Origin: Myxococcota bacterium
Lineage (GTDB): Bacteria; Myxococcota_A; Polyangia; Nannocystales; Nannocystaceae
Length of the DNA: 64,000 nt
Assembly (NCBI GenBank): GCA_039028615.1
Contig: JBCCHT010000001.1
Span: 256,001-320,000 of the forward strand
Reading direction: 5' to 3'
Shown here: positions 28,851 through 59,877 of the stretch, one piece after another
Layout: each line of letters starts with the position of its first letter
How positions within the stretch are numbered: the stretch's first letter is position 1
The notes under the pieces: model-generated
What the model was told of the DNA's origin: nothing
Databases searched by the model: none
The model's input: only the letters and a program-made list of their open reading frames with translations
Program-made: the position numbers and the translations under genes

Positions 28851-28977
28851 GGGACGAGGCCGGGAACTCTAGCGCATCGAGATCTCGCGCTCCAGCCTCC
28901 GGGGCGTCGTCGAGCGGCGCCGACCGGAAGGGCCGCTGCCGCTCGACACCATCACCTACGACCGGCGAGACACGCCG

Positions 28978-30195: not shown

Positions 30196-30489
30196 GTCGA
30201 GAAGCATAGGAGAGCATGGGCCTTGCGTCATGGCCGTTTTGTGCTCGGGGCCGCACACCGAGCGCTCGAACAGTCACATCGCCGACCGCCCCACAGGCGC
30301 GCCGACGGAGCGCGACGACAGCCGGTGAACTCACCACCTTCATCGCAAAGATCGAGCGCGAACCGGAGCCTCTCAGGCCCGCTCACGCGGTCGGTTACGC
30401 CCGGCTTCGTGCCGTGTGGAGCCATTGCACGCACCGCCTTTTTCGTTGTAAATCACGTCTCCGGCCGACGTGTCGTGGAGGCTCGCTCG

Positions 30490-33189: not shown

Positions 33190-34091
33190 CGCAATCGCTC
33201 CGCTGCGAACGCGAGGACTCGCTGGGCGAGGGCCACACGCTCGTTCCGAGATTTCATGATCGTCTCCGTCGCGAGAACGGGCAGTCCGGTAACGGAGTCG
33301 CCATGCTCGACCACCATACCCGACAACAGCGAGCCGTAGTGCCTCGCGATTGCGTCCGCGGACGCGGGGACTCCGGCCAGCTGCGGGATCATCGTCGCCA
33401 GCGGTCCCTTGATCGCGCGGCCACCGACGATCGGGCTGACGGCGACCACGACCTTCTCCTGCAGTGCCTGACGGACGCCCTCGAGTCGCAGGATCGGATC
33501 GATCGATACATAGGGATTCGACGGACCGATGATGACCACATCCGCACCTTCGATGGCCCTCAGCAGACCGGGAGCGGGCGGCGGTCGGTGCTCGAAACGA
33601 ATCGCCTGGACCTCTGGCTCCCCGCGGCGACGAACGAGCCAGTGCTGAAACGACAAGGTCCCCTCGCCGACGGTATCGACCAGCGTCGGGCAGGGCTCGT
33701 CGCTCATCGGGACGATGCGGGCCGTGATCCCGAGGGCACCGCACAGCCGGGAGGTGACCGCGCTGAGAGACTCCCCTCGGCGCATGGCGTCCGTGCGCAG
33801 CAGGTGAGTGGCCAGGTCTCGATCACCGAGCGCGAACCAGTCCGGCCCGCCGAAGGCTCGGATCTGCTCGAGCGCGCCGAAGGTCTCGTCCTTCAAGCCC
33901 CAACCGCGCGTCTCGTCGGCGAGCCCGGACAGCGTGTACATCACGGTGTCGAGGTCGGGACAGACGGACAGCCCGCAGTGGACGAAGTCGTCTCCCGTGT
34001 TCACGACCGCCGTCATCGACGGCGACAGCTCGTAGAGACCGTCGAGCAGGCGAGCGCCGCCTACCCCCCCGGACAGAGCGAGCACCTTCAT
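33186..34091 (-). CDS. cofD: 2-phospho-L-lactate transferase
   Basis: [56 protein letters not shown]. Confidence 0.95.
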
Positions 34092-34870
34092 GCGTAGAGG
34101 TCCTCGTGCGGGCGGCGGTTGATCTGCTGGGCCGTGTCGGCCGACGCGGGAAAGTGAAGGCCACGCACGACGACGAGCGCCCGCCCTTCCGCCGCCTGGC
34201 CCGCCACGAGATCGGCGGTGGCCGCCACTTGGTCCGCGAGCGCGGTGGTCGTGTGCTCCAAGGGCCGTCCCTGCATGTCACGCTGGTTGCGTTGATCCCA
34301 AAGTGGAGGCAACCCGGCGCAACCGATTGCCACCCCCACCGTACCCAGGCGAAACGGTCGCCCGAACGAGTCGCTGACGACGACTCCGATCCGCGGCGAG
34401 AAGACCTCTCGGAGCGCCTGCGCCGAGCGATCGGGATCCACTGGGAGCAACACTGCCCATGGACCCACGCTCGGTGTCGCATTACCGCCCGGCGCGGCAT
34501 TGCTCAGGTCGATTCCCGCATTGGCCATCACGAAGCCCAAGCGGTGTCGCACGATCAACACGCCCTTTTTTGCCCGGGAGACCATCGTTGATTCACCGAG
34601 GATCAACTCGACCAAGCGAGGGTCCTTGTCGACTTCGGCCGCCAGCGAGTTCGCGCGGGGAGAGGGCGATACCGTGCTCAAATCGACGAATCGTCCCTCG
34701 GCGCGCGAGAGCACTTTCGATGAGAACACGAGGACGTCTTCGTCCTGCAGTTCCAGGCCCGCACGTCGGAGCGCGATGATGGCCAATTGCCCGACATCGT
34801 CTCCAGACTGGACCTCTGGAAACCCGGGTACCGCTGTTACTTCCAACCGAGAATCACACCGTATTTGCAT
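34088..34870 (-). CDS. cofE: Coenzyme F420-0:L-glutamate ligase (single domain)
   Basis: [38 protein letters not shown]; no nitroreductase C-terminal extension. Confidence 0.92.
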
Positions 34871-34907
34871 GTGACTCCGTAGCGGCGGCGACGGTACACT
34901 ACCGGGC

Positions 34908-35543
34908 TTGAAGATCGCAATCGTTGGTGGCACCGGGAAAGAGGGCAGCGGCCTCGCCGTGCGCTGGCTCAACCATGGACACACGGTCATGATCGGCTCT
35001 CGTGATGCCGACAAAGGACGAGCGCACGGTGAAAAACTCGGCGTGCAAGGCATGGGTAACGAGCAAGCCGCCGGCATGGCGGAGGTCGTCGTACTCACCG
35101 TCCCCTATTCCGCTCATGCGTCCACGCTCGAGGCCATTGCGCCACAACTGCGCGGGAAGATCTTGATCGACGTCACCGTGCCGTTGCGCCCTCCGAAGGT
35201 GAGCCGAGTCCAGCTGCCACCTGGCGGCGCCGCGGCACTCGAAGCACAAGCCATCGTCGGACCGGACACCCCCGTCGTCGCAACCCTTCATCACGTGAGC
35301 CACACGCACCTGGCCGGCACGGGAACGATCGAATGCGACGTGCTCGTGGCCACGGACGACGCTCGTGCCCGGGAGGTCACGCTGGAGCTACTCCGCGACC
35401 TCGGGCTGCGCGGACTCGATGCCGGGCCGCTCGCCAACGCGGTGGCCCTCGAGTCTCTCACGCCCGTGTTGATTCACCTCAACCGGCGATACAAGATCAG
35501 CAACGCGGGCGTCGTGTTCTCTGGCATCGGGTCGACGGACTAG
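34908..35543 (+). CDS. npdG: NADPH-dependent F420 reductase
   Basis: [42 protein letters not shown]. Confidence 0.92.
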
Positions 35544-35549
35544 CTCGGC

Positions 35550-36746
35550 TCACTCTTGCACGAAGGGAGCGTCGGTCTCGCATCGGGCGACGACCCGTTC
35601 GACGAAACGCGTCGCGGCGTCGAGCTGCGGAAGCGTGACGAACTCGTCGGGGCGGTGGGCTTGCGTGATCGAGCCGGGCCCGCAGATCAACGTCGGGGTG
35701 CGCAACGACTCTTGGAACAGGCCCGCCTCCGTGCAGTAGTCGACCTGCTGCGCCGAGCAACAGTGCCCCTCGTCGTGCTCCAGCAAGGTGCCGAGGACGG
35801 CGAGAAGACCCTCGCTGCCCTGGGAGCTCAGCGCGGGTAGGCTCGCGATCTCCTCCGTCTCGATCCGCGGCAAGGGGTTCCCTTGGCGATCGCTTCCCTG
35901 GGCGGGCCGCGACTCGCACCACGCCGCGAACTTCTGCAGCAACACCTCGCCGTCGACCCCGGGCAGGTGCCGGTACTCCCACAGCAGCTCCGCGAACTCG
36001 GGCACGATGTTGATCGCCGCGCCCCCGCGGATGACCCCGAGGTTGATGGTCGTGTGCGGGTATTCGAACGTCGTCGCAGGTGGGGGCGCCGTGTTGCGCA
36101 GCTCCTCCCCACGCTTCGAGAGGTAGTCCAGCACCTGCGCCATTTCCGCTATGGCACTGACGGCATGCGTCTGGGAGCTCGAGTGACCCGCACGCCCGTG
36201 GACCGAGGTCTTGAGCAGCTTCATGCCCTTGTGTGCGTTCACGGGCTCCATGTCGGTGGGTTCACCGACGATGCAGGCCGCGGGCGTGCCGAGTCGCTTG
36301 GTCAAAATTCCCACCGCTTCTCGGGCCCCGTGGCAACCGACCTCCTCGTCGTACGTCATCAACAGGTGGATGGGAGTCTGCAACCGAGCGGGGTTCATGC
36401 GAGGCACCGTGGCCAGCACCGCGGCGATGAACCCCTTCATGTCGCAGCTCCCCCGCCCGAACAGGCGGTCTTCGGCCAGCCACGGGTCGAAGGGATCACG
36501 CGACCAATTCTGGCCATCGATGGGGACGACGTCGGTGTGCCCCGAGAGGATGACCCCAGGCCGATCGGTCGGTCCGATGGTCGCGATGAGGTTCGCCTTC
36601 AGCCCGGTGGCGTCCTTCTGAATCTCGAACTCGATGCCGAAGCCACGAAGATACGAAGCCACGAAGTCGATCAGCTCGAGGTTGGAATCGCGGCTGACCG
36701 TTGGGAAGGAAATGAGCTCCCGAGCGAGTTCAACAGTGCTTCGCAT
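35550..36746 (-). CDS. argE: Acetylornithine deacetylase-like M20 amidohydrolase
   Basis: SGHTDVVP, GRGSCDMKG, YDEEVGC, VGEPT, AHKG, QAHRPDE. Confidence 0.85.
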   Translation of the reverse strand: MRSTVELARELISFPTVSRDSNLELIDFVASYLRGFGIEFEIQKDATGLKANLIATIGPTDRPGVILSGHTDVVPIDGQNWSRDPFDPWLAEDRLFGRGSCDMKGFIAAVLATVPRMNPARLQTPIHLLMTYDEEVGCHGAREAVGILTKRLGTPAACIVGEPTDMEPVNAHKGMKLLKTSVHGRAGHSSSQTHAVSAIAEMAQVLDYLSKRGEELRNTAPPPATTFEYPHTTINLGVIRGGAAINIVPEFAELLWEYRHLPGVDGEVLLQKFAAWCESRPAQGSDRQGNPLPRIETEEIASLPALSSQGSEGLLAVLGTLLEHDEGHCCSAQQVDYCTEAGLFQESLRTPTLICGPGSITQAHRPDEFVTLPQLDAATRFVERVVARCETDAPFVQE

Positions 36747-37053
36747 CACGAGGATCTTAGCGCACACCCAAGTGCCTGGCCCGCGAGGTCTGACGCTTCA
36801 TTTCCGCCCCGCGCGGGTGTGAACTCGAGCCGTGAGAGACCCGACCTCGACGTCGCGAATTCGCGTTGGCTCGAGGTCATGGGACACCCGACTTCGCGGC
36901 TGCTGCGCAACCTCGATTCGGCCGCCGAGACCAGCACAAAGAGCCGAAATTCGATTTTTTCGACGTGAGCGAAGAGTCTTGCCAGCGGCTGAGGCTATGC
37001 CACTATCCCTTGCACGGCGCCGGCCATACTGACGCCGACAACGAGGTTTGAGC

Positions 37054-38007
37054 ATGCCCCAAAAGCGCGTCGGACTCTGGTTTTACACCAACGAACACGG
37101 ACACGTCATTCGCCAGGAAATCGTGGACCGACTCGAGGCAGCGGGACTGGATGTCACCTACGACTTCGACATGAGGGAGTGCTACTGCCTCAACGGCCAG
37201 GTCTTTACTCGCGACGGCATCAACCTGTCCGAGATGGACGTGTTCCACTACATGAATGCAGAGGAACGCAACGACCACCAACACGACATGCTTCGTTTGA
37301 TCGAAGAGTCGGGGGTCGAGATGTTCAACTCCTACGCGTCCTATACCTACGCGAACGACAAGTTCCTCGCGAACTGCAAGCTCCGCCAAGCAGGTGTCAA
37401 TGTCGCGGACTCGATGCTGATCCCCGTCAACTTCGACGAGGACCGGATCCGGCGCATCTTCGACGAGTGGAAGAGCTTCATCATCAAGCCCCGGGACAAG
37501 ATCTGTGCAACCGGGATCATGAAGATCGACAGCTACGAGAAGTTTTACGACTTCTACTTGTTCGCCAAAGAGTTCGTCGGGAACCTGTACATCGAGCGCT
37601 ATATCCCCTTCGAGAAGCGTGACATTCGGGTCGAGATCTTCGACGACGAAGTCGTGGGCGATGGCTTCTCTCGGGTGATGGGCCACTCGTTCAAGACCAA
37701 CGTCAGGTCCGGCGGCCGCGCGACGTTCATTCCCGCCGAAGACGACGCCAAGCAGACTGCATTGGATGCTGCGCGTGCGCTCGGCATCACCACCACCATC
37801 GTCGACATGGTCCGCAACACGGAGACCGGCGAGCCGTACGTGCTCGAGGTCAACCCGCTGCTCGGCGTGTTCTACGGAGCCCACTACGCGTCGCTCGGGC
37901 AGCCGGTCCCCGAGTACTTCGCAGAGATCGACAAGGTGAAGATCGAGTACATCGTCCGTCACATCATCCGGCTCGCCGATCCTTCTGCTGCCCTTCCCAA
38001 GCAATGA
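37054..38007 (+). CDS. RimK-family ATP-grasp ligase
   Basis: ANDKF, IIKP, YIERYIP, DIRV, FKTNVRSGG, VDMV, LEVN. Confidence 0.85.
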   Translation: MPQKRVGLWFYTNEHGHVIRQEIVDRLEAAGLDVTYDFDMRECYCLNGQVFTRDGINLSEMDVFHYMNAEERNDHQHDMLRLIEESGVEMFNSYASYTYANDKFLANCKLRQAGVNVADSMLIPVNFDEDRIRRIFDEWKSFIIKPRDKICATGIMKIDSYEKFYDFYLFAKEFVGNLYIERYIPFEKRDIRVEIFDDEVVGDGFSRVMGHSFKTNVRSGGRATFIPAEDDAKQTALDAARALGITTTIVDMVRNTETGEPYVLEVNPLLGVFYGAHYASLGQPVPEYFAEIDKVKIEYIVRHIIRLADPSAALPKQ

Positions 38008-38795
38008 ACAACCGCACCTTGCCCGGTCGCATCACGCTGTGCACCGGTGCGGCCGGTAGCATCGGTCGCGCCATCTGCCGTCGTCTGCTCGACGAGGGAG
38101 ACATCATCGTCGCCGTCGACAAGAACGAGGACGGCCTCGGTCGGCTGCGAGAAACACTGGCCGTCGCGGACGAGCGCCTTCACCTTCTGGGGGTCGACGT
38201 CACCGACGCAGAGGCGCTCGCCCGGGGGCTCGAGCCCATCACCCGCACGACGGGACCGGTGCAGCTGCTGATCAACAACGCCGGGGGCAATCGCACGACC
38301 CTGCTCGAGGAGACCTCGATTCACGACTGGAAGGCCGACATCGAGCTCAACCTCAACGCGGCGTTCTACGTCTTTCAGCAGGTGCTCCCGGGCATGCTCG
38401 CCGCAGGTCGAGGCTGCGTCCTCAACATCGGGTCGGTCAACGGCCTGTCCACCTACGGCGACCCGGCCTATAGCGCGGCCAAGGCCGGTCTCATCAGCTT
38501 CACCCGATCCATCGCCACCGAGTACGGGCGGCGGGGTATTCGGGCCAACATCATCTGTCCCGGCACGGTGAAGACCGAAGCATGGGACGAGATGCTGCGA
38601 CAGAAACCGGAGCTATTCGAACGGCTCTCGGCCATGTGCTCCCTGGGCGACATCGCTACGCCCGAAGACGTCGCCGCCTGTGTCAGGTTCCTGGCCTCCG
38701 ACGAAGCCCGTCTCATTCACGGGAGCACGTTGGTCATCGACGGAGGGCTCACCGCGGGTGTCCCGACGGTCATGAACGAGTTTACCAACGACTAG
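38004..38795 (+). CDS. SDR family oxidoreductase
   Basis: TGAAGSIG, NNAG, YSAAK, IRANIICPG. Confidence 0.9.
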   Translation: MNNRTLPGRITLCTGAAGSIGRAICRRLLDEGDIIVAVDKNEDGLGRLRETLAVADERLHLLGVDVTDAEALARGLEPITRTTGPVQLLINNAGGNRTTLLEETSIHDWKADIELNLNAAFYVFQQVLPGMLAAGRGCVLNIGSVNGLSTYGDPAYSAAKAGLISFTRSIATEYGRRGIRANIICPGTVKTEAWDEMLRQKPELFERLSAMCSLGDIATPEDVAACVRFLASDEARLIHGSTLVIDGGLTAGVPTVMNEFTND

Positions 38796-38828
38796 GACAC
38801 CTAGCCGCTGGTTGTGTGTGGAGAGAAA

Positions 38829-39971
38829 ATGTCAGCCATCATCGAGAAGTTTCATTTTGACGAGGTCGTAGTCCCGTGCCATCCGGGTTCCATCAACTCG
38901 GAGGGGCTCGACAAAGCCCTGCACCGGCAGCCCGTCGCCGGCAAGAAGGCCTGGGGCATTCAGTTCTTCGAGCTTCGCAAGCTCATCCTGCGGGTGGAGC
39001 TCAGCAACGGTGTCGTGGGTGTGGGCGAGTTCTACCGCGACCACAACTGGGGCAAGGTCAAGGGCATGGCCGAGATCCTCATCGGCCGAGACATCAACGA
39101 GTTGTCCCTGCAGGCTCTACCGATCGGCGAGTGCAGGGAGTACTTCGGCTTCGAATGCGCGCTCTACGATACGGTCGCGAAGCACCGCGGCATGCGGGTC
39201 GTCGACCTGATCGGAGGCCCCGTTCGTGAGCACGTCGCCGTCAGTGCGTGGTCGAGCCACCGAACCGTCGAGGACATCGGACCCCTCGCCGGCCGTTATC
39301 ACGAGATGGGCTACGACGTCATCAAGCTGAAGTCCGACCTCGAAGACGACGTGGTGCGCTGGTGTGAAGAGATCAAGAAGCACGCCCCCGGCATGCGCGT
39401 GATCTTCGACCCCAATGCTCGCTGGAAGAACGCGGGCTATGTTCGCGAGCGACTGCGGGGCCTCGAGCGTGTCGGCAACGTGATGCTGCTCGAAGATCCG
39501 CTGCCGCACTGGATGTATCACGAGTACGCGGAACTGCGTCGATTCAGCTCCATCCCCATCGTGCTCCACGTCTCCCCTCCATATACCGAGGAAGGCCAGT
39601 CGGTGCATGACGCGATCAATGCGATCAAGCATGGCTCGATCGACGGGTTCAACTTCAACGCAGGTGTCGACAGCTTCAAGCAACTCACGGGTGTTGCGTC
39701 CGCGGCCGGGGTCAACTGCTGGCACGGATCCGAGATCGACCTCGGCGTCCTCGAGGCGATGTTCATTCACAACGCGATCGCGGCCAAGTGCTGCGTGTGG
39801 CCCAGCGACATCTTCGGCCGCCTGCTGCGTGAACACGATCTTCTCAAGACCCCGCTTCGCATCGAGGCCCCGTACGCCTATCTTCCCGAGGGCCCGGGAC
39901 TCGGGGTCGAAGTCGATCGAGACGCGATCGAGCGCTACAAGACCGGAGAGTGGTCGCTGTCCATGTCCTGA
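38829..39971 (+). CDS. Mandelate racemase/muconate lactonizing (enolase superfamily) enzyme
   Basis: GVGE, KLK, DPN, EDP, PEGPGLGVEVD. Confidence 0.85.
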   Translation: MSAIIEKFHFDEVVVPCHPGSINSEGLDKALHRQPVAGKKAWGIQFFELRKLILRVELSNGVVGVGEFYRDHNWGKVKGMAEILIGRDINELSLQALPIGECREYFGFECALYDTVAKHRGMRVVDLIGGPVREHVAVSAWSSHRTVEDIGPLAGRYHEMGYDVIKLKSDLEDDVVRWCEEIKKHAPGMRVIFDPNARWKNAGYVRERLRGLERVGNVMLLEDPLPHWMYHEYAELRRFSSIPIVLHVSPPYTEEGQSVHDAINAIKHGSIDGFNFNAGVDSFKQLTGVASAAGVNCWHGSEIDLGVLEAMFIHNAIAAKCCVWPSDIFGRLLREHDLLKTPLRIEAPYAYLPEGPGLGVEVDRDAIERYKTGEWSLSMS

Positions 39972-40138: not shown

Positions 40139-41047
40139 CTACGCCCGAGCCACGAGCAGCTGGATCGGCGTCTCGAACACGACGCTCCCCTGGCTGTCTG
40201 CGTGGACTGCCGCAAGCTCGGTGATGGCCTCGCGAAGCTCTTGCTTCTGCGACGTATCGAGTAAGTCGACGAGATAGCTGTCGCGCCACTGCTCCCACGC
40301 CTTCTCGACGGCGAAGCGCTTTCGAATGACGAGCCCGTCGTTCACGTCGGCCTCCACGAAGCCGCGCTCGCGGGAGAACACCGAGCGAAGGCCATCGGGG
40401 TTTCGAGTGGCGGGGTCTCCCATTTGCAGGCCCTCGATCTCGAAGCCTTTGTCGAGGAAGAAACGCCGAATGAGCGGCCCGAACTTGGTGATCGCTCCCG
40501 CTGGCGGGCGCGAGCTGGAAATCATAGCGACGAAGACCCCGCCCGTCTTCAGCACCCGACGAATCTCGGACGCGACCGGCTCGAGCGGGCGCATCAACAT
40601 GAGCGCAGCATGACAGACGATGGCATCGACGGAGCCCGTCGTCAGTGACATGGAGTGCGCCTGTTCGCAGATGAAGCGAACATTGGGCTGCGCCTCCCAC
40701 TTGCTCCGTGCGAGTTCGATCTCGTCGGGAGACATGTCGACACCAATGAACTGTGCGTCGCGGCAGCGCGTCTTCATGAGGCGCCCGATGAGATGCCCGT
40801 CGCCGCAGGCGAGGTCGACGATGGTGCCGAGCTCTTCCTTCGAATCGAGGAGTCCTCGAACGACGAGCTGATAGGAGTCGACGCCGTCGAGGACATCGTG
40901 ACCGGCGAACACCTCGGGGCTCGCCCCCGCCAGTCGGCCGTGTGCACTCCGGAGGTAGGCATTCCAGTCCTCGTCGCCGAGGGTCTCGCCTCTGAGCATT
41001 CGCGCCGCGTGATCGGAGCCGCCGTCCTTACCCTCGTCGAATTTCAT
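40139..41047 (-). CDS. Class I SAM-dependent methyltransferase
   Basis: VDLACGDG, GVDMS, RRVLKTGG. Confidence 0.85.
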   Translation of the reverse strand: MKFDEGKDGGSDHAARMLRGETLGDEDWNAYLRSAHGRLAGASPEVFAGHDVLDGVDSYQLVVRGLLDSKEELGTIVDLACGDGHLIGRLMKTRCRDAQFIGVDMSPDEIELARSKWEAQPNVRFICEQAHSMSLTTGSVDAIVCHAALMLMRPLEPVASEIRRVLKTGGVFVAMISSSRPPAGAITKFGPLIRRFFLDKGFEIEGLQMGDPATRNPDGLRSVFSRERGFVEADVNDGLVIRKRFAVEKAWEQWRDSYLVDLLDTSQKQELREAITELAAVHADSQGSVVFETPIQLLVARA

Positions 41048-41082: not shown

Positions 41083-42447
41083 CTATGCATCCGGGGCTTT
41101 GCCCCGTGCCTCTCTCATGAACGCCTCGATGTCCGCAGGAAGCCGGGGAATCTTCTCCGACATCACCGTGACGCCGTCCTCGGTCACGAGGATGTTGTCT
41201 TCGATGCGCGCCCCGATGTTCCACCAGTCTGGGTTCACGTCGGGCGTGCCGCTTCGGACGTAGATGCCGGGCTCGAGCGTCATGACCATATTCGGGAGCA
41301 GCTGTCGCCAGCGGTTTTCGTCGATGGCGTAGGTGGCTTCATCGTGGATGTCGAGCCCCAGCCAGTGCCCCATGTTGTGCATGAAGAACCGCCGCCACGT
41401 CTCCTTCTCCAGGTGCTCGTCGTAGCTGCCCGAGATGACCCCGAGGTCGAGGAGACCCGAGATGACGCGGTCGGGCACGATGCCCTGCGGGACGTCCAGA
41501 GTCACTCCGGGGCTGACCAGCGACATCAGCTCGCGCTCGATCGACAGCACGAGCTCGTACAGCGCCCGCTGCCGCCCCGAGAACCGACCGTTGGCGGGAT
41601 AGGTCACGGTGAGGTCCGACGTATAGAACTCGTACTCCGCCCCGGTATCGATCAGCACGAGGTCACCGTCTCGTACCGGCCCCGCGTTGCGCTCGCGATA
41701 GTGCGACAGGCAACCATCCACGCCCGAGATCACGGTGGGCGCGAACGATGGCTCCGCGCCTCGTCGCAGGTACTCCCGGGTGAGCTCGGCCTCCAGCTCG
41801 TACTCGTGCATGCCGGGACGCGTCGCGCTCATCACGTGCAGCAGGCCATCGACGGTGATGTCGACGGCGTGCTGCAGCAGCGCAATCTCGGCCGCCGACT
41901 TGTATAGCCGGAGTTCGGAGACCAGGGTCTCGAGCTGAGACAGGTTGGTCGGGGCCACCACGCCGCGGCGAACTTTGTACTGCACCGAGCGCAGCCACTG
42001 GGGCAGCCTCGCATGTACGACGTCGTCACGACCGAAGAGGTAGTAGACCGTGTTGATGCCGTCGAGCAGCGGGGGACCGATGTCGTCGAGTTGTTCGACG
42101 AGATATCCACGGTCCGCCCCGAAGACCTCCACCGCTTCGGTGGGTCCGCTCCGCTTGCCGAGCCACGCCTCGCGCTCCGGGACGGGGCGGCGAGTGAACA
42201 GGAGGTACTCGCAGTCGGACGCCGAGCGCCGAACGAAGACGGCCCACGCCTCCGGCTCGATGAACCCGGTGACATGGTAGAAGTGGCTTCGCGGCCTGAA
42301 CCGGTAGCAGGTGTCGAAGGTCCGCTCGACTTGGTCGGCGGTCCGCAAGATGGCCACGCTCCCGTCACACATGCGCTCGAACAGCGCTCGTCGTCGCGCG
42401 GCGAACTCGGCCGCGCCCACGGGCTCGGGTGACGGTGCGTCGGTCAC
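41083..42447 (-). CDS. pepP: Xaa-Pro aminopeptidase (aminopeptidase P, M24)
   Basis: LIDTGAE..YTSDLT, HNMGHWLGLDIHD, TLEPGIY, RIEDNI. Confidence 0.9.
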   Translation of the reverse strand: MTDAPSPEPVGAAEFAARRRALFERMCDGSVAILRTADQVERTFDTCYRFRPRSHFYHVTGFIEPEAWAVFVRRSASDCEYLLFTRRPVPEREAWLGKRSGPTEAVEVFGADRGYLVEQLDDIGPPLLDGINTVYYLFGRDDVVHARLPQWLRSVQYKVRRGVVAPTNLSQLETLVSELRLYKSAAEIALLQHAVDITVDGLLHVMSATRPGMHEYELEAELTREYLRRGAEPSFAPTVISGVDGCLSHYRERNAGPVRDGDLVLIDTGAEYEFYTSDLTVTYPANGRFSGRQRALYELVLSIERELMSLVSPGVTLDVPQGIVPDRVISGLLDLGVISGSYDEHLEKETWRRFFMHNMGHWLGLDIHDEATYAIDENRWRQLLPNMVMTLEPGIYVRSGTPDVNPDWWNIGARIEDNILVTEDGVTVMSEKIPRLPADIEAFMREARGKAPDA

Positions 42448-42451
42448 GGGC

Positions 42452-43831
42452 TCAGAACTCCGCGTAGGCCTCGACGATGGAGCGCATGCTCGACCCCGAG
42501 CGCAATAGGCGGAGCGCGTGGCCTCCCGGGCACTCGAGCTGCTCTGCGCGTCGATACAGCGGCTTGAGGAAGACCTCTTCTCCTCGGCCGCGCTCTTGCA
42601 GACCGCGATGAGAGAGTTCGACGAGGCGCTCGAGGACCTTGCGCATCTCCGCCGCCGGGGCGATTTCTTCCTGGCGGCCGACGTTCACCAGCCGTCGGAG
42701 CTCGGAGTTCGACAGAGACGTGCCGAGCGCGTCGAGCACTTCCTCCACCTCGAGGAGATGCTCGCGACATCCGAGCACGAACGCGGCCGGAGCGAACGCG
42801 TCTCGCAGCGGCTGCTCGCAGAACGAGCGAATCTCCACCGTCTTGTGCTTCGTGAGCGTGATGTTCTTGAAGCCCTTGAACCCCTCGAGGTGCTCGAGGC
42901 TCGGATGGACGACCGTCTCGCGGGGCTTGGTCCAGTCCTCCATGAACCACCCGGGGAGGGTCTCCGTCTCGGGCATCAGCAAGTAGTCGCGGAGCGGGAG
43001 CGGACGGAAGCAGATGAGCCCCGGGTCGGGCGTCTTCCACATCGCGAGGTCGGCCATGGCCTCGCAGACGTCCGTGACGCTGCGAAAGTCCCGGTCGTGT
43101 GGACCGAGGTTGCCCTCGAGCGTCCCGTAGACGCTGTCCGCATAGAACAGGTCTCGGCTTCCCACCCACGGCCCGACCGCCTCCCCCTCGCGCGGAGGCA
43201 CGATGGAGTTGGAGAACAGTAGAGCGAAGATCCAGTCGAGCTTCGAGTAGACGCGGAACACATCGGGCAGCTCGTCGACACTACAGTCGACGTGCACCTG
43301 CGAGGCGTTGACGAACGCGAAGAAGTCTCGATGATAAAACTGTGACTGTTTCGGGTGCACCTGCGCGAAGTGACGAAGCAGTCGATAGTTCGAGACCTCC
43401 AGGGGGTCGGTGTTCATCGTCTGGAAGTTGGGGTGGAGCCCCAACCCAGACAAGACCACGCCCTCGGGGGCCAAGGCCTGCTGCATGCAACGAAGGTAGT
43501 CGTAGCTGCGCTCGGCGACCTCGTTCAGGTCCTGCCCCGGTGCGAGCGCCAGCTCGATCATGTGGAAGCAGTACTCGAACGCGATGAAGTCACCGTTGCG
43601 GGTATTCGTGGCCGCGACGAGTCGGCCCGACGCGTCGCGCTTCCCGGGCTCGAGGGCAAAGGTCTCGACGAGACGCTCCAGCGCCGCGACGGCCACGTCG
43701 GGTTCGACGGAGCCGCCATCGAGCGCGACCAGAGGGATCTCGAGCTCGATACCGAAATCAGAGCCGGACTTTCGAACCATCGGCTCGACGTAACGTTCAA
43801 AGAGAATTTCGGCCGCGTGCATGGGAATCAA
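42452..43831 (-). CDS. Glutamate--cysteine ligase-like (gamma-glutamyl ligase) protein
   Basis: FGIELEIPL, IELA, ASQVHVD, ALLFSNS, VEIRSFCEQP. Confidence 0.75.
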   Translation of the reverse strand: MIPMHAAEILFERYVEPMVRKSGSDFGIELEIPLVALDGGSVEPDVAVAALERLVETFALEPGKRDASGRLVAATNTRNGDFIAFEYCFHMIELALAPGQDLNEVAERSYDYLRCMQQALAPEGVVLSGLGLHPNFQTMNTDPLEVSNYRLLRHFAQVHPKQSQFYHRDFFAFVNASQVHVDCSVDELPDVFRVYSKLDWIFALLFSNSIVPPREGEAVGPWVGSRDLFYADSVYGTLEGNLGPHDRDFRSVTDVCEAMADLAMWKTPDPGLICFRPLPLRDYLLMPETETLPGWFMEDWTKPRETVVHPSLEHLEGFKGFKNITLTKHKTVEIRSFCEQPLRDAFAPAAFVLGCREHLLEVEEVLDALGTSLSNSELRRLVNVGRQEEIAPAAEMRKVLERLVELSHRGLQERGRGEEVFLKPLYRRAEQLECPGGHALRLLRSGSSMRSIVEAYAEF

Positions 43832-46371
43832 CCGTGACGGGATGCAGAGCGCGGAGTCGAAGTCTCGGCTTCGACATCATCACCGCGGCGGGCGGTCGCA
43901 TCGACCGCGCACACGCGAAGCTCACACGTGTAAGAGCGCCCGGAGGCGTCGGGAAGCCAGGTCTCGTGGGGCCCGGGCAGCATCTCGGAGACGTCGACGT
44001 ACTCGACCTTCGACGTGATGTAGAGCAGCGCCTCCACGAGGAAGGGGTTGTCGAAGTCGATCATGATCGGCTTCCGCTCGCTCGGGCTCTTGACGAAGAC
44101 GCGACGGGGAAGACCGTGGGTCTGCGCCCAGCGACGCACGGAGAGAAAGCTCGCCGCATCTCCCCCCGCGGCCTTCGTGGGACAAGGCAGGCGCCACCGT
44201 TCGCGGGAGATGACGACCCCATCGACGGTGACCCGGGGCAGGCGCTCGCTGTCGAGGAGCTGAAACGACTCCGGCGCAGCGTTGACCAGGTAGTTGTCGA
44301 GCACCACGCGAAAGTCCAGCGTCAGGCGCCCATCTCGTGTCGCCACCACGAGCGTGCCCTCGGCGTCACGAGTGACGACGAGGTCTCCGATCGCGAGGGT
44401 CCGCGCCACCGCCGGATCCGGGGGAGGCCACGAAGTGTCCAGCACCGTGAGGGACGGGCAGTTGGGCGGCACGTGATGCCGCGCGCGTTGAAACTCTTCT
44501 CCCGGCGGAGCGGGGCGAACGACCTGCGGCAGGTCCTGCGCGTAGGCCTGCGTCGCGACGGCGAGCACGTCTGGGGAGAGCTTCAGGATGCATGGGAACA
44601 GCACCGTGTTCGCGCAGGGGTGAATCTCACCGAGCACGGGCAGGAAGTCGCCGCTCGCCATGGCTTCCGCGCTCGATGCCGCGAACATCAGGTCGGGAGA
44701 CTGAAAGCAGGCGTTCGGCCACCCCGGCTCGCTCGCCTCGAGCAGCGGCCCCAGGCGCTTCCTCATCTCGGTCACCGTCAGCTCGACGGGCGCGTAGTCG
44801 GCATCGACATTGAGCGAGTCCAGCCACGCCCGCTGGAAGTCGACGAGCAAGACCTCACCGCGAGCTTGGTTGAGGAATCGTTCGGACGCCGTCGCGAGAA
44901 AGCGCGGGAAGTCGGCCCTTCCCGTGGCGTCCGCGAGCTCGGTCTGCAGCGCATCGAACTCGGGGAGCAGGTCCTCCCACAGCCGGGCCGTGTAAGCACG
45001 GATCGTGTCGTAGACGAGCTCGAGCGGCTCGAGGCGCGGCAAGACGTCTTCGCTGACGTTCATGCCGACATCTCGAGCGCATTCGAGGTACGCGATGCTT
45101 CGCGCTTCGTAGGTCTTGCCTCCGCCGCGGCGTGCCGACCATCCCGTGACCTCCTCGAAGAAACGCTCGAGTTCGGTCAACGCCGCCTTCACCTCCGCGA
45201 CGCCTCGAGACTCTTCGAGGGCGGTCCGCAGCTGCTCGAGCCGCTCGAGTCGCGCCTCCCACGGCGCATGGGCATCCGGGGGGAGAATGTTGGCGAGCTC
45301 CGTCCGTAGGGTCAGGTTCGGACGCGTGTCGAGCACGGGCACGATGGGCACGCGGGTGATGGCTCCACGCTCCTCGATCGAACTCAGGGCGGATTCGAGG
45401 TCGGCCGGGCTGTCGAAGACCGACTCGGCCTTGCACAGCAGTTTCTCGAGTTTGTGGATTGCACGGGTCCCATCACACAACCCCACGAGGCGTACCCAGG
45501 CCGGAGGAAGCTCCTCCGTCCGCCCATCGGCATGACGGAGCGTGTGCCCCTCCACGTAGACCGTGGGCATCTTGCGGGGTCGCAGATGCGGCTTTGCCTG
45601 GGGATCGCGTGCGACGGCCTGCGCGATCTGGACCATCGCCCAGTGCTCCAGGAACACCTCGCGCTTTCGCAGCAACGAGGCACCCGGCTCGAAGCTCGAG
45701 GGCCCATCGACGAACTCGCCGACCGAAGCCGCACCGAAGTAGCCAATCGTGTCGTTCTTGGCCAAGAAGCGCTGCAGGTACATCATGGCGAGCCGCTCGC
45801 CCGTACGCACCGAGTGATTCCGCTCGACGGGAAGACCATCGCCGATGAGGGCCTCGACCCGCGTGGAGGCGGTGGGGCTCTGCCAGTGCACCGCTTCGCG
45901 CACCGCGTCGTCGGAGACGAGCTCCCGCAAGGTCTGCCGCACTCGGGGCAGCTCTTCGCCCCACGCGGACATGAAGCTGTCGAACGCGGCCTCTCTCGAT
46001 TCTTCCGCGACGACCCATTGTCCGAGTTGCGGAATTCGGCCGCCCAACGCCGCGAGATCCTCCTCGCGCAAACGCTTGCTCGCCCGAAGCTTGGTTCGGG
46101 CCCGCCGTGCCCGGATCTTGAGGGCACGACGCTCCGCTTCGTCGACCTCCTCGTAGGCATACTGCTGCAGGGCCTTCAGCGCCTGCTGTCGGGCGAGTGC
46201 GGCTTCGTGGGTCCGAGAGGCAAGCTCGTCTGCCGCAGCGGAAGCGGCATCGACACAAAGGCGCCCGAGCCCCTCGATGGGAAAGCCCGCCGAGCGTACG
46301 AGGAACCACTGCCAATACCGCCATCGCGATGCTGAGGAGCCGCGGTGATGGGACAGTGAAGGAGTCTGCAT
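43828..46371 (-). CDS. Stand-alone LanB glutamylation-domain protein (peptide aminoacyl-tRNA ligase, PEARL-like)
   Basis: LVRSAGFP, VREAVHWQ, YLQRFLAKNDTIGYFG, QSPDLM, VLGEIH, PRVTVDGVVISRERW, FVKSPSERKP, SEMLPGP..W...G..YTCELR; ends without an elimination domain. Confidence 0.85.
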   Translation of the reverse strand: MQTPSLSHHRGSSASRWRYWQWFLVRSAGFPIEGLGRLCVDAASAAADELASRTHEAALARQQALKALQQYAYEEVDEAERRALKIRARRARTKLRASKRLREEDLAALGGRIPQLGQWVVAEESREAAFDSFMSAWGEELPRVRQTLRELVSDDAVREAVHWQSPTASTRVEALIGDGLPVERNHSVRTGERLAMMYLQRFLAKNDTIGYFGAASVGEFVDGPSSFEPGASLLRKREVFLEHWAMVQIAQAVARDPQAKPHLRPRKMPTVYVEGHTLRHADGRTEELPPAWVRLVGLCDGTRAIHKLEKLLCKAESVFDSPADLESALSSIEERGAITRVPIVPVLDTRPNLTLRTELANILPPDAHAPWEARLERLEQLRTALEESRGVAEVKAALTELERFFEEVTGWSARRGGGKTYEARSIAYLECARDVGMNVSEDVLPRLEPLELVYDTIRAYTARLWEDLLPEFDALQTELADATGRADFPRFLATASERFLNQARGEVLLVDFQRAWLDSLNVDADYAPVELTVTEMRKRLGPLLEASEPGWPNACFQSPDLMFAASSAEAMASGDFLPVLGEIHPCANTVLFPCILKLSPDVLAVATQAYAQDLPQVVRPAPPGEEFQRARHHVPPNCPSLTVLDTSWPPPDPAVARTLAIGDLVVTRDAEGTLVVATRDGRLTLDFRVVLDNYLVNAAPESFQLLDSERLPRVTVDGVVISRERWRLPCPTKAAGGDAASFLSVRRWAQTHGLPRRVFVKSPSERKPIMIDFDNPFLVEALLYITSKVEYVDVSEMLPGPHETWLPDASGRSYTCELRVCAVDATARRGDDVEAETSTPRSASRHG

Positions 46372-46583
46372 GTAGTTACCCAAGATGTACGCACGCTCAG
46401 CGACACACCCAGACGACGGTGGCTTAGCATGGACTCGGCCTACGTTCAAACGGTAGAACGGCCCCCAGAGTTCCCCTGGTGACGTTCTGAGGGCAAACGG
46501 CCCGGTGTCCGCTCGGCCCCGCGCAACGCCCAGCGCCTATGAAAACCGCGCCCTCGGATCACGACCGAATTCGAGGGTGTGGC

Positions 46584-47828
46584 TCAGCCTTTGGTGGCGA
46601 CCGGGAGGTGAAAGCGAAAGCGGTTGTCTTCAATGAGACGGGAGTAGCTGCCGAATGTCGCATCTGGATTACTCACGCGATCCAGACTGGTTTCTTCGTC
46701 CGGCACGTGATCCCCGGAAAAGCGGCGAAGTGTTCGATAACGAGTATCGCGCTCGACCGGCACACGGCCGGCCTCGCGAATGATCCGTCGAAGACTCGCG
46801 GGAGATTGGAATTGCCCATGCCGAGCCCCCGCGGAAGTGGAGATACTCTCATTGATGAGTGTGCCCCCTAGATCATTGGCACCACAGCTCAGCATTGCTT
46901 GCGCCATATTGACCCCTTCTTTGACCCAGGACACCTGAATATTGCGGAAGGTGGCACCGAGCATGAGTCGCGCAATCGCGTACAGCCGCGTCACTTCATT
47001 CGCCGTCGGGCCGGGGCGGAGCGAGGGCAGAAGCCGTCGCATGTGCATCGGTGCTTCTTCGTGGACGAACGACAGCGGCACGAACTCCGTGAACCCTCCC
47101 GTTTCACTCTGTAGCCGCCGCAGATAGTCGAGATGCCGCATCCGCTGCAGGTCGTTCTCGATGTGGCCATGCATCAACGTCGCGGTCGTGGGCACCCCCG
47201 CGGCGTGCGCGGCCCGAATCACCTCGGTCCACTCTGCCGTCGTGATCCGACCCGGAGCGATTTTGTCGCGCACGCCGTCGTCGAACACCTCCGCTGCGGT
47301 CCCAGGCAAGCTGTCGACACCGGCCTCTTTGAGTTCGACGATGAACTCTGCGATTGACACCCCTCGGAGCTCGGCGCCGAACTTCACCTCTTCTGGGGAG
47401 AACGCATGCACATGCAGCGCGGGCACGGCCGCCTTCACCGCCTGCACGAGATCGACGTAGTAGTCGGGGTCCTGGCCCGGAGCGAGCCCGCCTTGAATGC
47501 AGACTTCGGTCGCCCCGTAGTCGTGGGCCTCCTTGGCGCGACGCACAATCTCGTCGGTATCGAGAAAGTAGCCCTCTTCGCTGCGGCGTGTTCGCGAAAA
47601 GGCGCAGAACCGACAGCCCTTGATGCAGACGTTGGTGAAGTTGATGTTCCGATTGATGACGTAGCCGACGTCGTCGCCCACCTGCTGCCGTCGAAGCTCG
47701 TCCGCCGTCTGCATCAGGGCATGAAGCTCGGGGCCGTTGACCGTGCACAGCCGGACGGCGTCGTCGACCGCGAGTTCACGGCCGTTCAGCACGCCGTCGA
47801 GGATGGTCCTGATTTCTCGATCAGACAT
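46584..47828 (-). CDS. cofH: FO synthase subunit 2 (radical SAM)
   Basis: NRNINFTNVCIKGCRFCAF, SLPGTAAE, GGFTEFVPL, NIQVSWVK, NDLGGTL. Confidence 0.93.
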   Translation of the reverse strand: MSDREIRTILDGVLNGRELAVDDAVRLCTVNGPELHALMQTADELRRQQVGDDVGYVINRNINFTNVCIKGCRFCAFSRTRRSEEGYFLDTDEIVRRAKEAHDYGATEVCIQGGLAPGQDPDYYVDLVQAVKAAVPALHVHAFSPEEVKFGAELRGVSIAEFIVELKEAGVDSLPGTAAEVFDDGVRDKIAPGRITTAEWTEVIRAAHAAGVPTTATLMHGHIENDLQRMRHLDYLRRLQSETGGFTEFVPLSFVHEEAPMHMRRLLPSLRPGPTANEVTRLYAIARLMLGATFRNIQVSWVKEGVNMAQAMLSCGANDLGGTLINESISTSAGARHGQFQSPASLRRIIREAGRVPVERDTRYRTLRRFSGDHVPDEETSLDRVSNPDATFGSYSRLIEDNRFRFHLPVATKG

Positions 47829-48975
47829 GGGAGATTTCCTCGGACGCCAGGCGTGACCGCGCGGCATGGACCTGCTCGTGCAGCTGCGGATCCAGCCACA
47901 CCTCGTCGATGTAGCGATCGTAGATCGGCAGCCGGGGTTGGAGCGTGAAGCCCTGCTCTTCGCATCGTTGCGCCATCCGCTTCAGGTGCGGCCAAGGATG
48001 CCTCGGGTTGATGTAGTCGGGTGTGACCGGCGAAATGCCCCCGAAGTCGTTGATGCCCGCGCCGAGGAGCGCTCGAATCGAAGACGGGTTGAGGTTCGGC
48101 GGCGCTTGGATCGAGATCTCGGGGTCGAGGATCAGGCGCGCCAGCGCGACCGTGTCGAGGATGACGTCCTCGTCGGGTTCGGGAGCGTCCGCCATGCGGG
48201 TCCCGGCCACCGCCCGAAAGTTCTGCACGATGACCTCTTGGATGTGCCCGTGTTCGCGATGGCTGCGACGAATCGCGAGCAGACTCTGCACCCGCTCGCG
48301 CCGCGTCTCGCCGATGCCGACCAGGATTCCCGTGGTCATCGGGATGCGCAACGCTCCCGCCTGGTCGATCATGCGCATGCGCTTGGCGGGGCGCTTGTCC
48401 GGGGCGCGGTGATGCGGCATGCCCCGTTCGCACAGCCGAGGGCTGATGTTCTCGAGCATGATGCCGAGGCTCACGTTGACTTCTCGCAGCCGTCGCATCG
48501 CCTCGACATCGAGGATGCCCGCGTTGGTATGCGGCAACAGGCCGAGGCTCAGCGCACGCTGGCCGGCCCAGACCAGATAGTCGACCGTACTCCCCTGCCC
48601 CAGTTGCTGGAGGGTCTTGCGGTACGAGCCGAACGCGGTCTCCGGTGTGTCGCCGAGGCAGAGCAGAGCCTCTGCGCAGCCCTCGCCACGGGCGCGATTC
48701 AGGGCTTGCTCGACCTGCTCGGGCGTCATCGTCCACTCCCCCGGGTCACCCGGTGAGCGACGGAACGAACAGTAGTCGCAGCGATTGCGGCACAAGTTCG
48801 TCAGCGGCAAAAAGACCTTGGGCGAAAACGTGACCGTGTTGCCGAAGTAGCGGTCTCGCAAGGCCGCCGCCTCGGCGCGCAACTCGGCCGCTGGCACCCC
48901 GGTCTCGACCAGGGCCAGCGCCTCCCCTTCGAGGAGTAACGGTGGTGATTGCACGCGGGGCGCTTGGAGCTGCAT
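47821..48975 (-). CDS. cofG: FO synthase subunit 1 (radical SAM)
   Basis: FLPLTNLCRNRCDYC, PHTNAG, TTGILVGIGE, QEVIVQNF, QAPPNL, GGISPVTPDYINP. Confidence 0.93.
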   Translation of the reverse strand: MQLQAPRVQSPPLLLEGEALALVETGVPAAELRAEAAALRDRYFGNTVTFSPKVFLPLTNLCRNRCDYCSFRRSPGDPGEWTMTPEQVEQALNRARGEGCAEALLCLGDTPETAFGSYRKTLQQLGQGSTVDYLVWAGQRALSLGLLPHTNAGILDVEAMRRLREVNVSLGIMLENISPRLCERGMPHHRAPDKRPAKRMRMIDQAGALRIPMTTGILVGIGETRRERVQSLLAIRRSHREHGHIQEVIVQNFRAVAGTRMADAPEPDEDVILDTVALARLILDPEISIQAPPNLNPSSIRALLGAGINDFGGISPVTPDYINPRHPWPHLKRMAQRCEEQGFTLQPRLPIYDRYIDEVWLDPQLHEQVHAARSRLASEEISHV

Positions 48976-48996: not shown

Positions 48997-49785
48997 TCAG
49001 TCGCGCTTCGCTGCGCAGGCGGACACGAATGCCTCGTACACGCGAGTGAACCCCACGTGGTTTCGCCCGGAGCGTTCGATGTCGCCCTGAATGCCCACGA
49101 TGAAGTGGTCGGGGTCTGCCGACTCGATGCACTCCACCACGCCGTCGGGCGAGCGCCCGGAGACGATCAGCCCTTCACCGATCGTGTCGACCGCCTGGTG
49201 ATGCATCGAGGGCATGATTCCGCTCTTGCTCTGGAACGCCGCGTGCACTCGAGTGCCCTCGACGATCTCGAACGGGTGGTGATGGATGTACCCGTTGTTG
49301 TCGAGCTCGTGCATGAGGGTCGCGACGTCGGAGACTTCCTGATGGAGCGTGCCTCCGTGCGCGACGTTGAGCAGCTGCATGCCGCGGCACAGCCCCATGA
49401 TCGGCAGGCCCCGGCTCTTCGCCTCGCGGAAAATCGCCAGCTCGAAGTGGTCCCGCACCTTGTTGGGGCCCATCATCGGGGGACGCAGGTAGGGCTTGCC
49501 GAAGACGATGGCCTCGCCGCTGTAGTTGACCTTTTGCTCCTGGCCGTAGTTGGACGGGTCGACGTCCTGGCCCCCGGGGAAGAGCACCCCGTCCAAAGCG
49601 GCCACCAGGTCGGGAACGTGCTCGATCGGCGAAACGTCGGTGAGCAGCACCGGATTGCCTCCTGCGGCCGCGATCGGCTCGAGCATCGCCGTGGTGAGTA
49701 TGGTGACTTGGCGACGCAGCGCGCCGTGGACGTTCACCCAGGTGGTGAGCCCTGGAACTCCGATGAGCGGTTTTCTTGAAGGCAT
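48997..49785 (-). CDS. Gamma-glutamyl-GABA hydrolase (PuuD/C26, GATase1) family protein
   Basis: PGGQDVDP, RDHFE, GLCRGMQLLNVAHGGTL, SMHHQAV; QGDIE in place of QWHPE. Confidence 0.85.
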   Translation of the reverse strand: MPSRKPLIGVPGLTTWVNVHGALRRQVTILTTAMLEPIAAAGGNPVLLTDVSPIEHVPDLVAALDGVLFPGGQDVDPSNYGQEQKVNYSGEAIVFGKPYLRPPMMGPNKVRDHFELAIFREAKSRGLPIMGLCRGMQLLNVAHGGTLHQEVSDVATLMHELDNNGYIHHHPFEIVEGTRVHAAFQSKSGIMPSMHHQAVDTIGEGLIVSGRSPDGVVECIESADPDHFIVGIQGDIERSGRNHVGFTRVYEAFVSACAAKRD

Positions 49786-50149
49786 TCTCTTGCTTTGGCT
49801 TTCAGGCGAGCGACCAGTCCCAGCCGGCCGGCGAACGGCCGCCAGCGGCCTCCCGCTCGGAAACGTCCGCCCTGGCGTTCGGCAATGCACAAAGACCGAG
49901 AGCGGAGCGACGAACGACGACGAGTCTGGTTTCGCTCGCGGGTACTGTGCGCTGTGCAGCCAGGCACCGAGTAACCTAGCAGGGCGACAGAGCCCCCTCA
50001 ACGAAAGTCATGGTGAAGATCTGTGGAGTCTCTTCACCTACCAATCGAGTCGTGCGAGAGGTCACGCTCGGCGCTGCCGCGGCGCATCACGTCTGGAGCG
50101 TGTCCGGGCGGTCTGCCTGCTATGGTCCGCGGGCGTTCAAGCGAGCTCA

Positions 50150-51052
50150 ATGATGTCGAAAAAACGTATCGGACTGTACATCGACCTGTGGGATCAAGGC
50201 GTCGACGGCAAGGAATATGGCTGGAAAGACGTCAAGGGAATGGCGCAGATTGCCGAGCAGAACAATTTCGACACCTTCTCGCTTCCCGATCGCTTGCACA
50301 TCTGGGGACATGGTCAATGGGAGTCGACCACCATGCTCGCCGCCGTTGCGGCAGTGACGTCCACCATCAAGTTGGAAATTGGGGTTATGCGATCGATTTA
50401 TCGCAACCCCACACTCGTCGGAAAGATCGTCGACAGTATTCAGGAGATCAGCGGAGGTCGCCTGATCTTGGGACTGGGCGCGGGCAGCGACGTCGGCGAG
50501 AACAAAGAGTACGGCTACCCCGAGAACTACCGCTATTCGCGATTCGAGGAATCTCTGCAGATTCTCCTCTCGCTCCTGCACACTGGCAAGGCGGACTTTC
50601 AGGGTCGGTTCTACCAAGCCAACAATTGCATGCTCACGCATCGCGAGTCGAAGCACCCGGTGCCGCCCCTGTTCATCGCGGCGAAGGGCCCGAAGATGCT
50701 GCGACTCGCTGCTCGCCACGCCGACATCTGGAACATTCCCATCGTCCCGGACTCCCCGGACGGGTGGAAGACCCACCTGAAGGACCTCGAAGAAGCGTGC
50801 GAGGAAGTCGGGCGAGATCCCGCGACGCTCGAGAAGCACGCCATCGTGGCGATTCCGTCCCCGAACAAGGACATCAAGCACCCCGGCGAGGGCTTCGACG
50901 GAACGCCGCTGAGCCGAGACGCCCGACAGGCCGCCGATCAGGTGGAGGTGTTCTTCGAGGCCGGGTTCAAGGAAATCCTGCTTTGGCCCGCGGTGTGCTC
51001 GGCTCAGGCCGTCGAAGAGATGGTCCCGCTCGTCGAGCTGCTGAAGAGCTAG
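50150..51052 (+). CDS. LLM-class (probably F420-dependent) oxidoreductase
   Basis: WESTTMLAAVAAVTSTI, RNPTL, SGGRLILGLGAG, GPKMLRLAARHADIWN; F420 dependence inferred from context. Confidence 0.85.
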   Translation: MMSKKRIGLYIDLWDQGVDGKEYGWKDVKGMAQIAEQNNFDTFSLPDRLHIWGHGQWESTTMLAAVAAVTSTIKLEIGVMRSIYRNPTLVGKIVDSIQEISGGRLILGLGAGSDVGENKEYGYPENYRYSRFEESLQILLSLLHTGKADFQGRFYQANNCMLTHRESKHPVPPLFIAAKGPKMLRLAARHADIWNIPIVPDSPDGWKTHLKDLEEACEEVGRDPATLEKHAIVAIPSPNKDIKHPGEGFDGTPLSRDARQAADQVEVFFEAGFKEILLWPAVCSAQAVEEMVPLVELLKS

Positions 51053-59795: not shown

Positions 59796-59803
59796 GTTTC
59801 GGG

Positions 59804-59877
59804 TGGGCGTGGGAGGACTTGAACCTCCGACCTCTGCCTTATCAGGGCAGCGCTCTAACCAGCTGAGCTACACGCCC
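59804..59877 (-). tRNA. tRNA-Ile (GAT)
   Basis: GGGCGTGTAGCTCAGCTGGTTAGAGCGCTGCCCT-GAT-AAGGCAGAGGTCGGAGGTTCAAGTCCTCCCACGCCCA; cloverleaf; CCA not encoded. Confidence 0.95.

Follow-up and report, generated by a model that had tools for sequence, protein, structure and literature searches.

We consider here a gene at 43828-46371 on the minus strand of a 64,000-nucleotide stretch of DNA from a Myxococcota bacterium (GenBank assembly GCA_039028615.1, contig JBCCHT010000001.1, positions 256,001 to 320,000; the whole stretch is called the window). We are highly confident, from the sequence and the modelled structure of its product, that the gene encodes a PEARL (peptide aminoacyl-tRNA ligase): the predicted active site is intact, the PEARL-specific residues are kept and the elimination domain is absent. 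As for the substrate, we tentatively favor, at a little less than an even chance, a small-molecule or nonribosomal peptide synthetase (NRPS)-derived carboxylate that is ligated through an amide bond with ATP and aminoacyl-tRNA. The use of PEARLs without a scaffold peptide is already known for a few enzymes; the gene partners here are different.

The open reading frame (ORF) spans 43828-46449 on the minus strand, and the ATG at 46371 gives a protein of 847 amino acids (aa). Pfam finds Lant_dehydr_N (PF04738, E 1.2e-19) as its sole domain and no Lant_dehydr_C, in agreement with a preliminary description of this DNA that had proposed a glutamylation-domain-only protein of about 850 aa; no match is found among the NCBIfam models. 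The AlphaFold2 model, built from 40 sequences, has a pLDDT of 91 and a pTM of 0.89. The following features are assigned to the protein:

43828-46371, minus strand: PEARL (LanB_C-type peptide aminoacyl-tRNA ligase), 847 aa, from PF04738 as the only domain, the AlphaFold2 model and the PEARL motifs.
45733-45780, minus strand: predicted tRNA-binding helix motif YLQRFLAKNDTIGYFG (residues 198-213), with Y198, R201 and K205-N-D.
45367-45588, minus strand: predicted RRE/PqqD-like subdomain, about residues 262-335, from the model and weak profile matches.
43915-44694, minus strand: ATP-grasp-like residues D560, E582/H584, R723, F759, K767, E817 and R819, each present in 40/40 sequences of alignment A1.

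Residues 198-213, which the preliminary description had quoted, follow the PEARL-type pattern KN[DE]T and not the dehydratase pattern RxTPFGLF, and the C-terminal EMLP...YTCELR named there is also present. To place the remaining residues we map them by eye onto published excerpts, by motif and spacing and with no full alignment. In three excerpts of Fig. S12 of PMC11212132 the regions YLQR..KNDT, SPD and C-E-L-R are all as in the PEARL rows, while the dehydratase rows excerpted there show RxTPFGLF and lack both SPD and an Arg following the Glu. For the BhaB7 residues named in the excerpts of PMC11962472 and PMC12945691, the counterparts, which agree in local spacing, are R26, Y198, R201, Y421, R424, D560, E582, H584, R723, F759, K767, E817 and R819. 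Ten of these 13 are found in 40/40 sequences of A1, the others being R26 (39/40), Y421 (38/40) and Y198 (36/40). Among them, the BhaB7 residues at the tRNA 3'-end, given in the excerpts as Y205, R208 and R429, correspond by eye to Y198, R201 and R424, and the excerpted D558, E575/H577, R715, F755, K763, E813 and R815 to D560, E582/H584, R723, F759, K767, E817 and R819. The phosphorylation residues 542, 801 and 803 of TglB, missing from dehydratases, correspond to D560, E817 and R819, each 40/40 in A1. The ATP- and tRNA-binding residues, whose loss the preliminary description had named as evidence against a PEARL, are thus kept. The RRE region is modelled as three strands and three helices, and its PqqD profile matches are weak (E 0.0065-0.1). 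In these respects the protein resembles TglB, BhaB1/5/7 and AmmB2, whose catalytic and tRNA-binding residues, as named in those excerpts, all have counterparts and whose RRE is present; it differs in having no adjacent scaffold peptide and no MNIO or flavin tailoring genes among its annotated neighbors. A single Logan contig covers 27001-47000 with 2 differences. Its run, the one in which this DNA is found, is a marine metagenome that may be the source of the sequenced DNA, and the contig is therefore not an independent confirmation; no RNA data set is listed as containing the DNA.

We turn to the genes directly around PEARL, which in the order of its strand are C26, cofG, cofH, PEARL, GCS2, aminopeptidase P and methyltransferase:

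48997-49782, minus strand: Peptidase C26/PuuD-like glutamine amidotransferase (Pfam; catalytic Cys kept).
46584-48975, minus strand: cofG and cofH, FO synthase subunits (TIGR03550 and TIGR03551, over cut-off).
42452-43831, minus strand: GCS2-family gamma-glutamyl ligase with a predicted plant-GCL fold (GCS2-like, E 2e-4; 2gwc, TM 0.77).
41083-42447, minus strand: Xaa-Pro aminopeptidase (M24B), with AMP_N and Peptidase_M24 (PRK10879 at 349 bits, cut-off of 465 not reached).
40139-41047, minus strand: class I S-adenosylmethionine (SAM) methyltransferase (Pfam).
49550-51052, plus strand: LLM-class oxidoreductase, start probably near 50140 (top matches to F420-dependent families, below cut-offs).

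The GCS-like, aminopeptidase P and methyltransferase neighbors had been correctly named in the preliminary description, which did not mention the F420 genes on either side or the same-strand PuuD-like gene. The overlap it reported between the PEARL stop (43830-43828) and the GCS2 start holds with TTG 43831 as the start and disappears with the equally plausible ATG at 43822, 5 nt past the stop; the junction is tight either way. The next spacings are 4 nt from GCS2 to aminopeptidase P and 35 nt from aminopeptidase P to the methyltransferase. The functional coupling of PEARL to these three genes that had been proposed would follow from this gene order, which is seen in one genome and is unreplicated.

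The GCS2-like protein matches the profile of plant-type glutamate-cysteine ligase (GCL) at E 1e-30, and the predicted fold and catalytic residues agree, the glutamates for metal and ATP being kept throughout alignment A3; the identity, however, is 18% and a cysteine acceptor is putative here. The genome also has a strong GCS2 match on contig C2 and a GshB-type gene on contig C7, so that the copy next to PEARL is an extra one. At E 0.001 it has 395 relatives, the top one 37% identical, and a scan of nine longer relatives shows a GshA fusion in three and a fusion to a class II amidotransferase in one (P0142). No close relative is found in 400 genomes of the phylum (best E 1e-28), a word search returned only the gene itself, and plasmids gave no GCS2 match.

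These genes lie in one contiguous, atypical low-GC island of about 33 kb (18.6-51.5 kb). Its four 8-kb segments rank at 0.7-5.7% in GC and at 89-99% in tetranucleotide composition among 1485 genome windows, and the flanks are host-like, including 10.4-18.4 kb. The island holds a full F420 pathway, an NRPS, AurF, the PuuD-like gene and a 51-aa peptide, and its enzymes are mostly of small-molecule types. Its other genes, and those to its left, are the following (Pfam/NCBIfam unless stated):

37048-39971, plus strand: RimK-like ATP-grasp ligase, SDR and enolase-superfamily enzyme (one operon).
35550-36767, minus strand: ArgE-like M20 deacylase.
32506-35543, mixed strands: cofC, cofD and cofE (minus), F420:NADP oxidoreductase (plus).
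30490-32493, plus strand: 667-aa protein with C25-peptidase-like look-alikes (a lead only).
27795-30258, minus strand: lactonase and DegT-type aminotransferase.
22529-27763, plus strand: NRPS, A(Cys-type)-T-Cy-T-TE (Pfam; DxxxxD cyclisation motif).
19082-22524, plus strand: AurF-like diiron oxygenase, 270-aa protein, NAD epimerase and phosphatase-like protein.
18859-19014, plus strand: 51-aa basic precursor-like peptide with a PCAT-type leader, a candidate substrate (ORF; leader pattern).
12424-18631, minus strand: ABC, C39 peptidase-ABC and HlyD export genes, of uncertain membership in the pathway.
10858-12405, plus strand: second cysteinyl-tRNA synthetase (CysRS; NCBIfam).

The A domain of the NRPS has BmdB as its top single-module PDB match, and its pocket letters agree at 9/10 positions with what we take to be the Cys code. 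The NRPS has two T domains and a single Cys-type A domain, with an N-terminal remnant C-lobe and, ahead of T2, a remnant A segment, both seen by eye. The 667-aa protein has no Pfam or NCBIfam match and no match found in plasmids; its look-alikes, in Actinomycetota clusters, are auto-named C25 cysteine peptidase, and His-Gly-like and Cys motifs are visible by eye. The 270-aa protein (20062-20874) shows a Nudix-box-like motif by eye and has no Pfam or NCBIfam match. Two candidates for related clusters were rejected: the AurF-bearing plasmid matches have only generic adenylation domains and LLM matches in common with the island, and an ArgE/ATP-grasp pair of Photobacterium belongs to a different cluster. 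The second CysRS is 31 kb from PEARL, within host-like DNA. Of 40 other genomes of the family, 38 have one CysRS match and 2 have none, two copies being found only here among the 41 searched; the identity of this copy to the single one in another genus is 86-87% (83% at the DNA level, over the gene only). Its link to the PEARL pathway is a guess, and its role could be supply, resistance or something unrelated. Rfam finds in the window only a tRNA-Ile (59802-59877, minus strand), 8 kb right of the island and a possible integration site, and promoter and terminator counts are no different from chance.

In enzymes of the PEARL family a carboxylate is phosphorylated with ATP, the resulting acyl-phosphate is attacked by the amine of an aminoacyl-tRNA, and hydrolysis then removes the tRNA. 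For the enzyme considered here the acceptor would be a carboxylate made by the surrounding island, and no scaffold peptide would be recycled. The thiazoline-carboxylate expected as the release product of the Cys-type A-T-Cy-T-TE NRPS is one candidate; alternatively, the acceptor may be a gamma-glutamylated intermediate from the co-transcribed GCS2 ligase. Less securely, GCS2 might put on a gamma-glutamyl group as protection or handle, which the PuuD-like protein would remove or transfer, and the methyltransferase, an F420-dependent reductase and aminopeptidase P might complete the product. That the added amino acid is Cys would be a guess, taken from the extra CysRS.

Three points lead us to favor a small-molecule acceptor: a scaffold next to PEARL is missing, the neighbors are small-molecule enzymes, and SnaE and SinB1/SinB2 provide a precedent; the duplication of GCS2 in the genome and the fusion of its relative P0142 to an amidotransferase are further points in favor. 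As the preliminary description had stated, no convincing scaffold peptide is found beside PEARL among all ORFs of 10-100 aa listed, mostly within the gaps of 10-52 kb, and a strict filter finds 0 acidic F[ND]LD-type small ORFs genome-wide. The absence is unsurprising, since PMC11212132 counts about two thousand NRPS/PKS (polyketide synthase) clusters with such enzymes and no precursor.

The precedents, which the preliminary description had understated, are both published. SnaE, from the threopeptin cluster of Stackebrandtia nassauensis, is described in PMC11212132 as a scaffold-free PEARL acting on an NRPS intermediate. It is close to the present protein in length (845 vs 847 aa), in the KNDTIG, SPD and ELR motif regions excerpted in Fig. 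S12, in the absence of a scaffold peptide and perhaps in having an NRPS in its cluster. The island here, however, has no ureido C domain and instead a Cys-type Cy module 16 kb away, and its PEARL is directly flanked by GCS2, aminopeptidase P, methyltransferase and F420 genes; SnaE is not in our trees. SinB1 and SinB2 of sinefungin (bioRxiv 10.64898/2026.05.21.726688) are scaffold-free PEARLs on a nucleoside. The likeness lies in a free small-molecule carboxylate acceptor (putative here) and in the presence, within the cluster, of a precursor-like peptide, which in sinefungin is a non-substrate; the difference, going by description, is that two PEARLs stand there with a B12 radical SAM protein, a kinase and a phosphatase, and here one PEARL with other partners. 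In the open-access literature, to which our search was confined, we find no PEARL described alongside F420 genes or a gamma-glutamyl ligase, nor one from a myxobacterial host, and no matching cluster under AurF with RiPP, F420 with myxobacteria, or the organism of the best GCS2 match.

How far do the homologues support this reading? We compare the loci of 152 homologues with 27-35% identity, taken as the best 80 from each collection, and build trees with FastTree (68 rows) and IQ-TREE (24 hand-picked rows), midpoint-rooted and without characterised PEARLs or an outgroup. The nearest PEARL homologues (P0002-P0010) are 35-43% identical; a PEARL profile at E 1e-20 gives no match in 72 other genomes of the order, and a single-protein locus search with PEARL found no relative. 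NRPS matches occur in 73/152 listed loci; among the 65 listed loci of at least 15 kb, an NRPS match is present in 42 and a protease-HlyD cassette in 10, with 1 locus having both and 14 having none of the two. Membership of an NRPS-associated clade, which the 73 loci might suggest, is not borne out by the trees, and since these place PEARL apart, the NRPS frequency of the homologues is not transferable to it.

Several results weigh against the small-molecule reading. PEARL forms with P0002-P0008 an 8-member clade (100/100) apart from the NRPS-neighbored and cassette groups, and GCS2, aminopeptidase P, methyltransferase, cof genes, AurF and CysRS occur in 0/152 listed loci. The NRPS here is 16 kb from PEARL vs a median of 3.1 kb in the listed loci, and it lacks the ureido motif, the source of SnaE's carboxylate: EHHxxHDG is not found in the window, only the Cy motif. 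The likeness of segments within the block (r 0.49-0.68) is no higher than that of unrelated low-GC windows (median 0.48, 95th percentile 0.70), so that composition supports one island and not one pathway. The C26/PuuD-like protein has Asp where its HxE motif usually has the catalytic His, and may be inactive or a transferase.

Two other arrangements of PEARL-like genes are seen among the homologues. A recurrent Myxococcota cassette (12/152 listed loci) has 1-5 PEARL-like genes with a ~820-aa fusion of a daptide-type intramembrane metalloprotease and HlyD, accompanied by HlyD, often by TolC, and mostly by no NRPS and no obvious scaffold peptide (L016, L020, L021/L082, L022, L026, L029, L040, L071, L076, L080, L095 and L097; also L224-L227). 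It may be an undescribed PEARL system. A Kitasatospora plasmid (L195, 19593-37348) carries seven tandem PEARL-like genes with TldD/E.

The main alternative, which we judge unlikely though worth weighing in full, is that PEARL makes a pearlin or other RiPP by extending the 51-aa peptide at its C-terminal Phe; the leader would be cut by the C39 transporter or the C25-like protein, and aminopeptidase P would clear the Ala-Pro junctions of an Ala-rich spacer, releasing a short core with its modification. The peptide is the sole match to the PCAT-leader pattern among the small ORFs of the genome, sits at the island edge (GC 0.58), and has two Ala-Pro junctions that would suit aminopeptidase P. The modelled RRE is kept in PEARL, but its retention does not discriminate. 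The preliminary description had placed the peptide 25 kb away and called it basic and Phe-ended, all of which holds (24.8 kb; 9 K/R, 2 D/E). It had taken both properties as unlike known scaffolds: the basic character does count against the peptide as substrate, but the C-terminal Phe is a weak argument because BhaB7 tolerates C-terminal residue changes (PMC11962472). Short precursors are also easy to overlook, since 22-mers such as FzmZ had been missed before (PMC13622209). On the other side, the peptide belongs to another operon, next to its own transporter, and a precursor-like peptide, SinA, is dispensable in the sinefungin cluster according to that preprint. Similar leaders also occur in tandem peptides beside PCAT in a same-genus genome without PEARL. 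In a same-genus genome (L199, 12629-13209) tandem short basic precursors with a GVKAG-type leader end and cores of 3-5 residues adjoin an asparagine-synthetase-like gene and PCAT.

We find it improbable that the arrangement is a recent mosaic, in which PEARL came in from a different system and now stands among F420 and housekeeping-like genes, its true partner being lost or elsewhere. The arrangement is a singleton, a same-genus genome has contiguous cof genes and no PEARL, and other Myxococcota homologues are tandem PEARLs with the protease-HlyD fusion, which the genome here lacks. Nevertheless, the key residues are all intact, the junctions are 4-35 nt or overlapping, and the run has the composition of the island.

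It is very unlikely that PEARL, GCS2, the ATP-grasp enzyme and the peptidases serve to make or modify a peptidyl tail carried by coenzyme F420 or by a deazaflavin product. The cof genes on either side of the PEARL run enclose three amide ligases and three amide hydrolases, the ATP-grasp enzyme has weak MptN/CofF matches, and small nucleoside carboxylates are acceptable to PEARLs (bioRxiv 10.64898/2026.05.21.726688). The absence of cof genes from the listed homologue loci argues the other way, CofE makes the tail already, and the LLM reductase and the F420:NADP oxidoreductase make the cof genes explicable as cofactor supply.

The closest fold to the PEARL model is TbtB (TM 0.65), followed by GodF, NisB, MadB and MibB, and one could read the gene as half of a split class I dehydratase that glutamylates Ser/Thr, with elimination in trans, for example by the compact LanB left of the window on a 59-aa precursor. 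TbtB and GodF do share the fold (TM 0.62-0.66), the size and the lack of an elimination domain in the chain, but TbtB is the default match: according to PMC12945691 no PEARL structure is reported, and the PDB contains none, so that the fold match cannot separate a PEARL from a split LanB. PF14028 has two matches in the genome (96.7% complete), both outside the window and each sharing an open frame with Lant_dehydr_N, one on contig C8 and one at C1:252980-253696, ~2.3 kb left of the window and ~46 kb from PEARL; no separate elimination-domain gene is found genome-wide, neither the free-standing domain in trans that the preliminary description had named as a counter-indication nor, as it had noted, any elimination domain in the protein or the window. 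With the PEARL residues present, among them the Asp and Arg for ATP phosphorylation that TbtB lacks (PMC11117183, as excerpted), and both elimination domains fused in full LanBs, a split dehydratase is most improbable, even though the Lant_dehydr_N match of the nearby 874-aa LanB is weak and partial, for the two domains are both present in that LanB, and it has cyclase-like, HExxH and P450 neighbors of its own. These belong to a class I lanthipeptide-like cluster at the left edge of the window (686-865, minus strand, and G000:C1:250274-256430), which comprises the 59-aa GG-leader precursor (686-865), a cyclase-like gene, the 874-aa LanB, an HExxH protein and a P450. The 59-aa precursor and the 51-aa peptide have in common an Ala-run-Pro stretch.

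Template-free amide formation is a task for which PEARLs are wanted as tools, and only two scaffold-free systems are found in the literature covered. The present evidence overturns nothing, with the gene coupling in one genome only, while the PEARL described here belongs to a divergent clade in which we found no characterised member and, lying in a compact orphan cluster where two candidate substrates are clear, is directly testable. A more far-reaching version of the preferred reading, which we regard as doubtful, is that the whole island is one hybrid pathway, in which PEARL would extend a small molecule, either gamma-glutamyl-carried or a thiazoline, or even the F420 tail, with the GCS2 handle in place of the scaffold peptide and possibly with Cys-tRNA from the horizontally acquired second CysRS. 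If true, a new carrier logic would apply to PEARLs, and a probable myxobacterium would be the source of a natural product that depends on F420.

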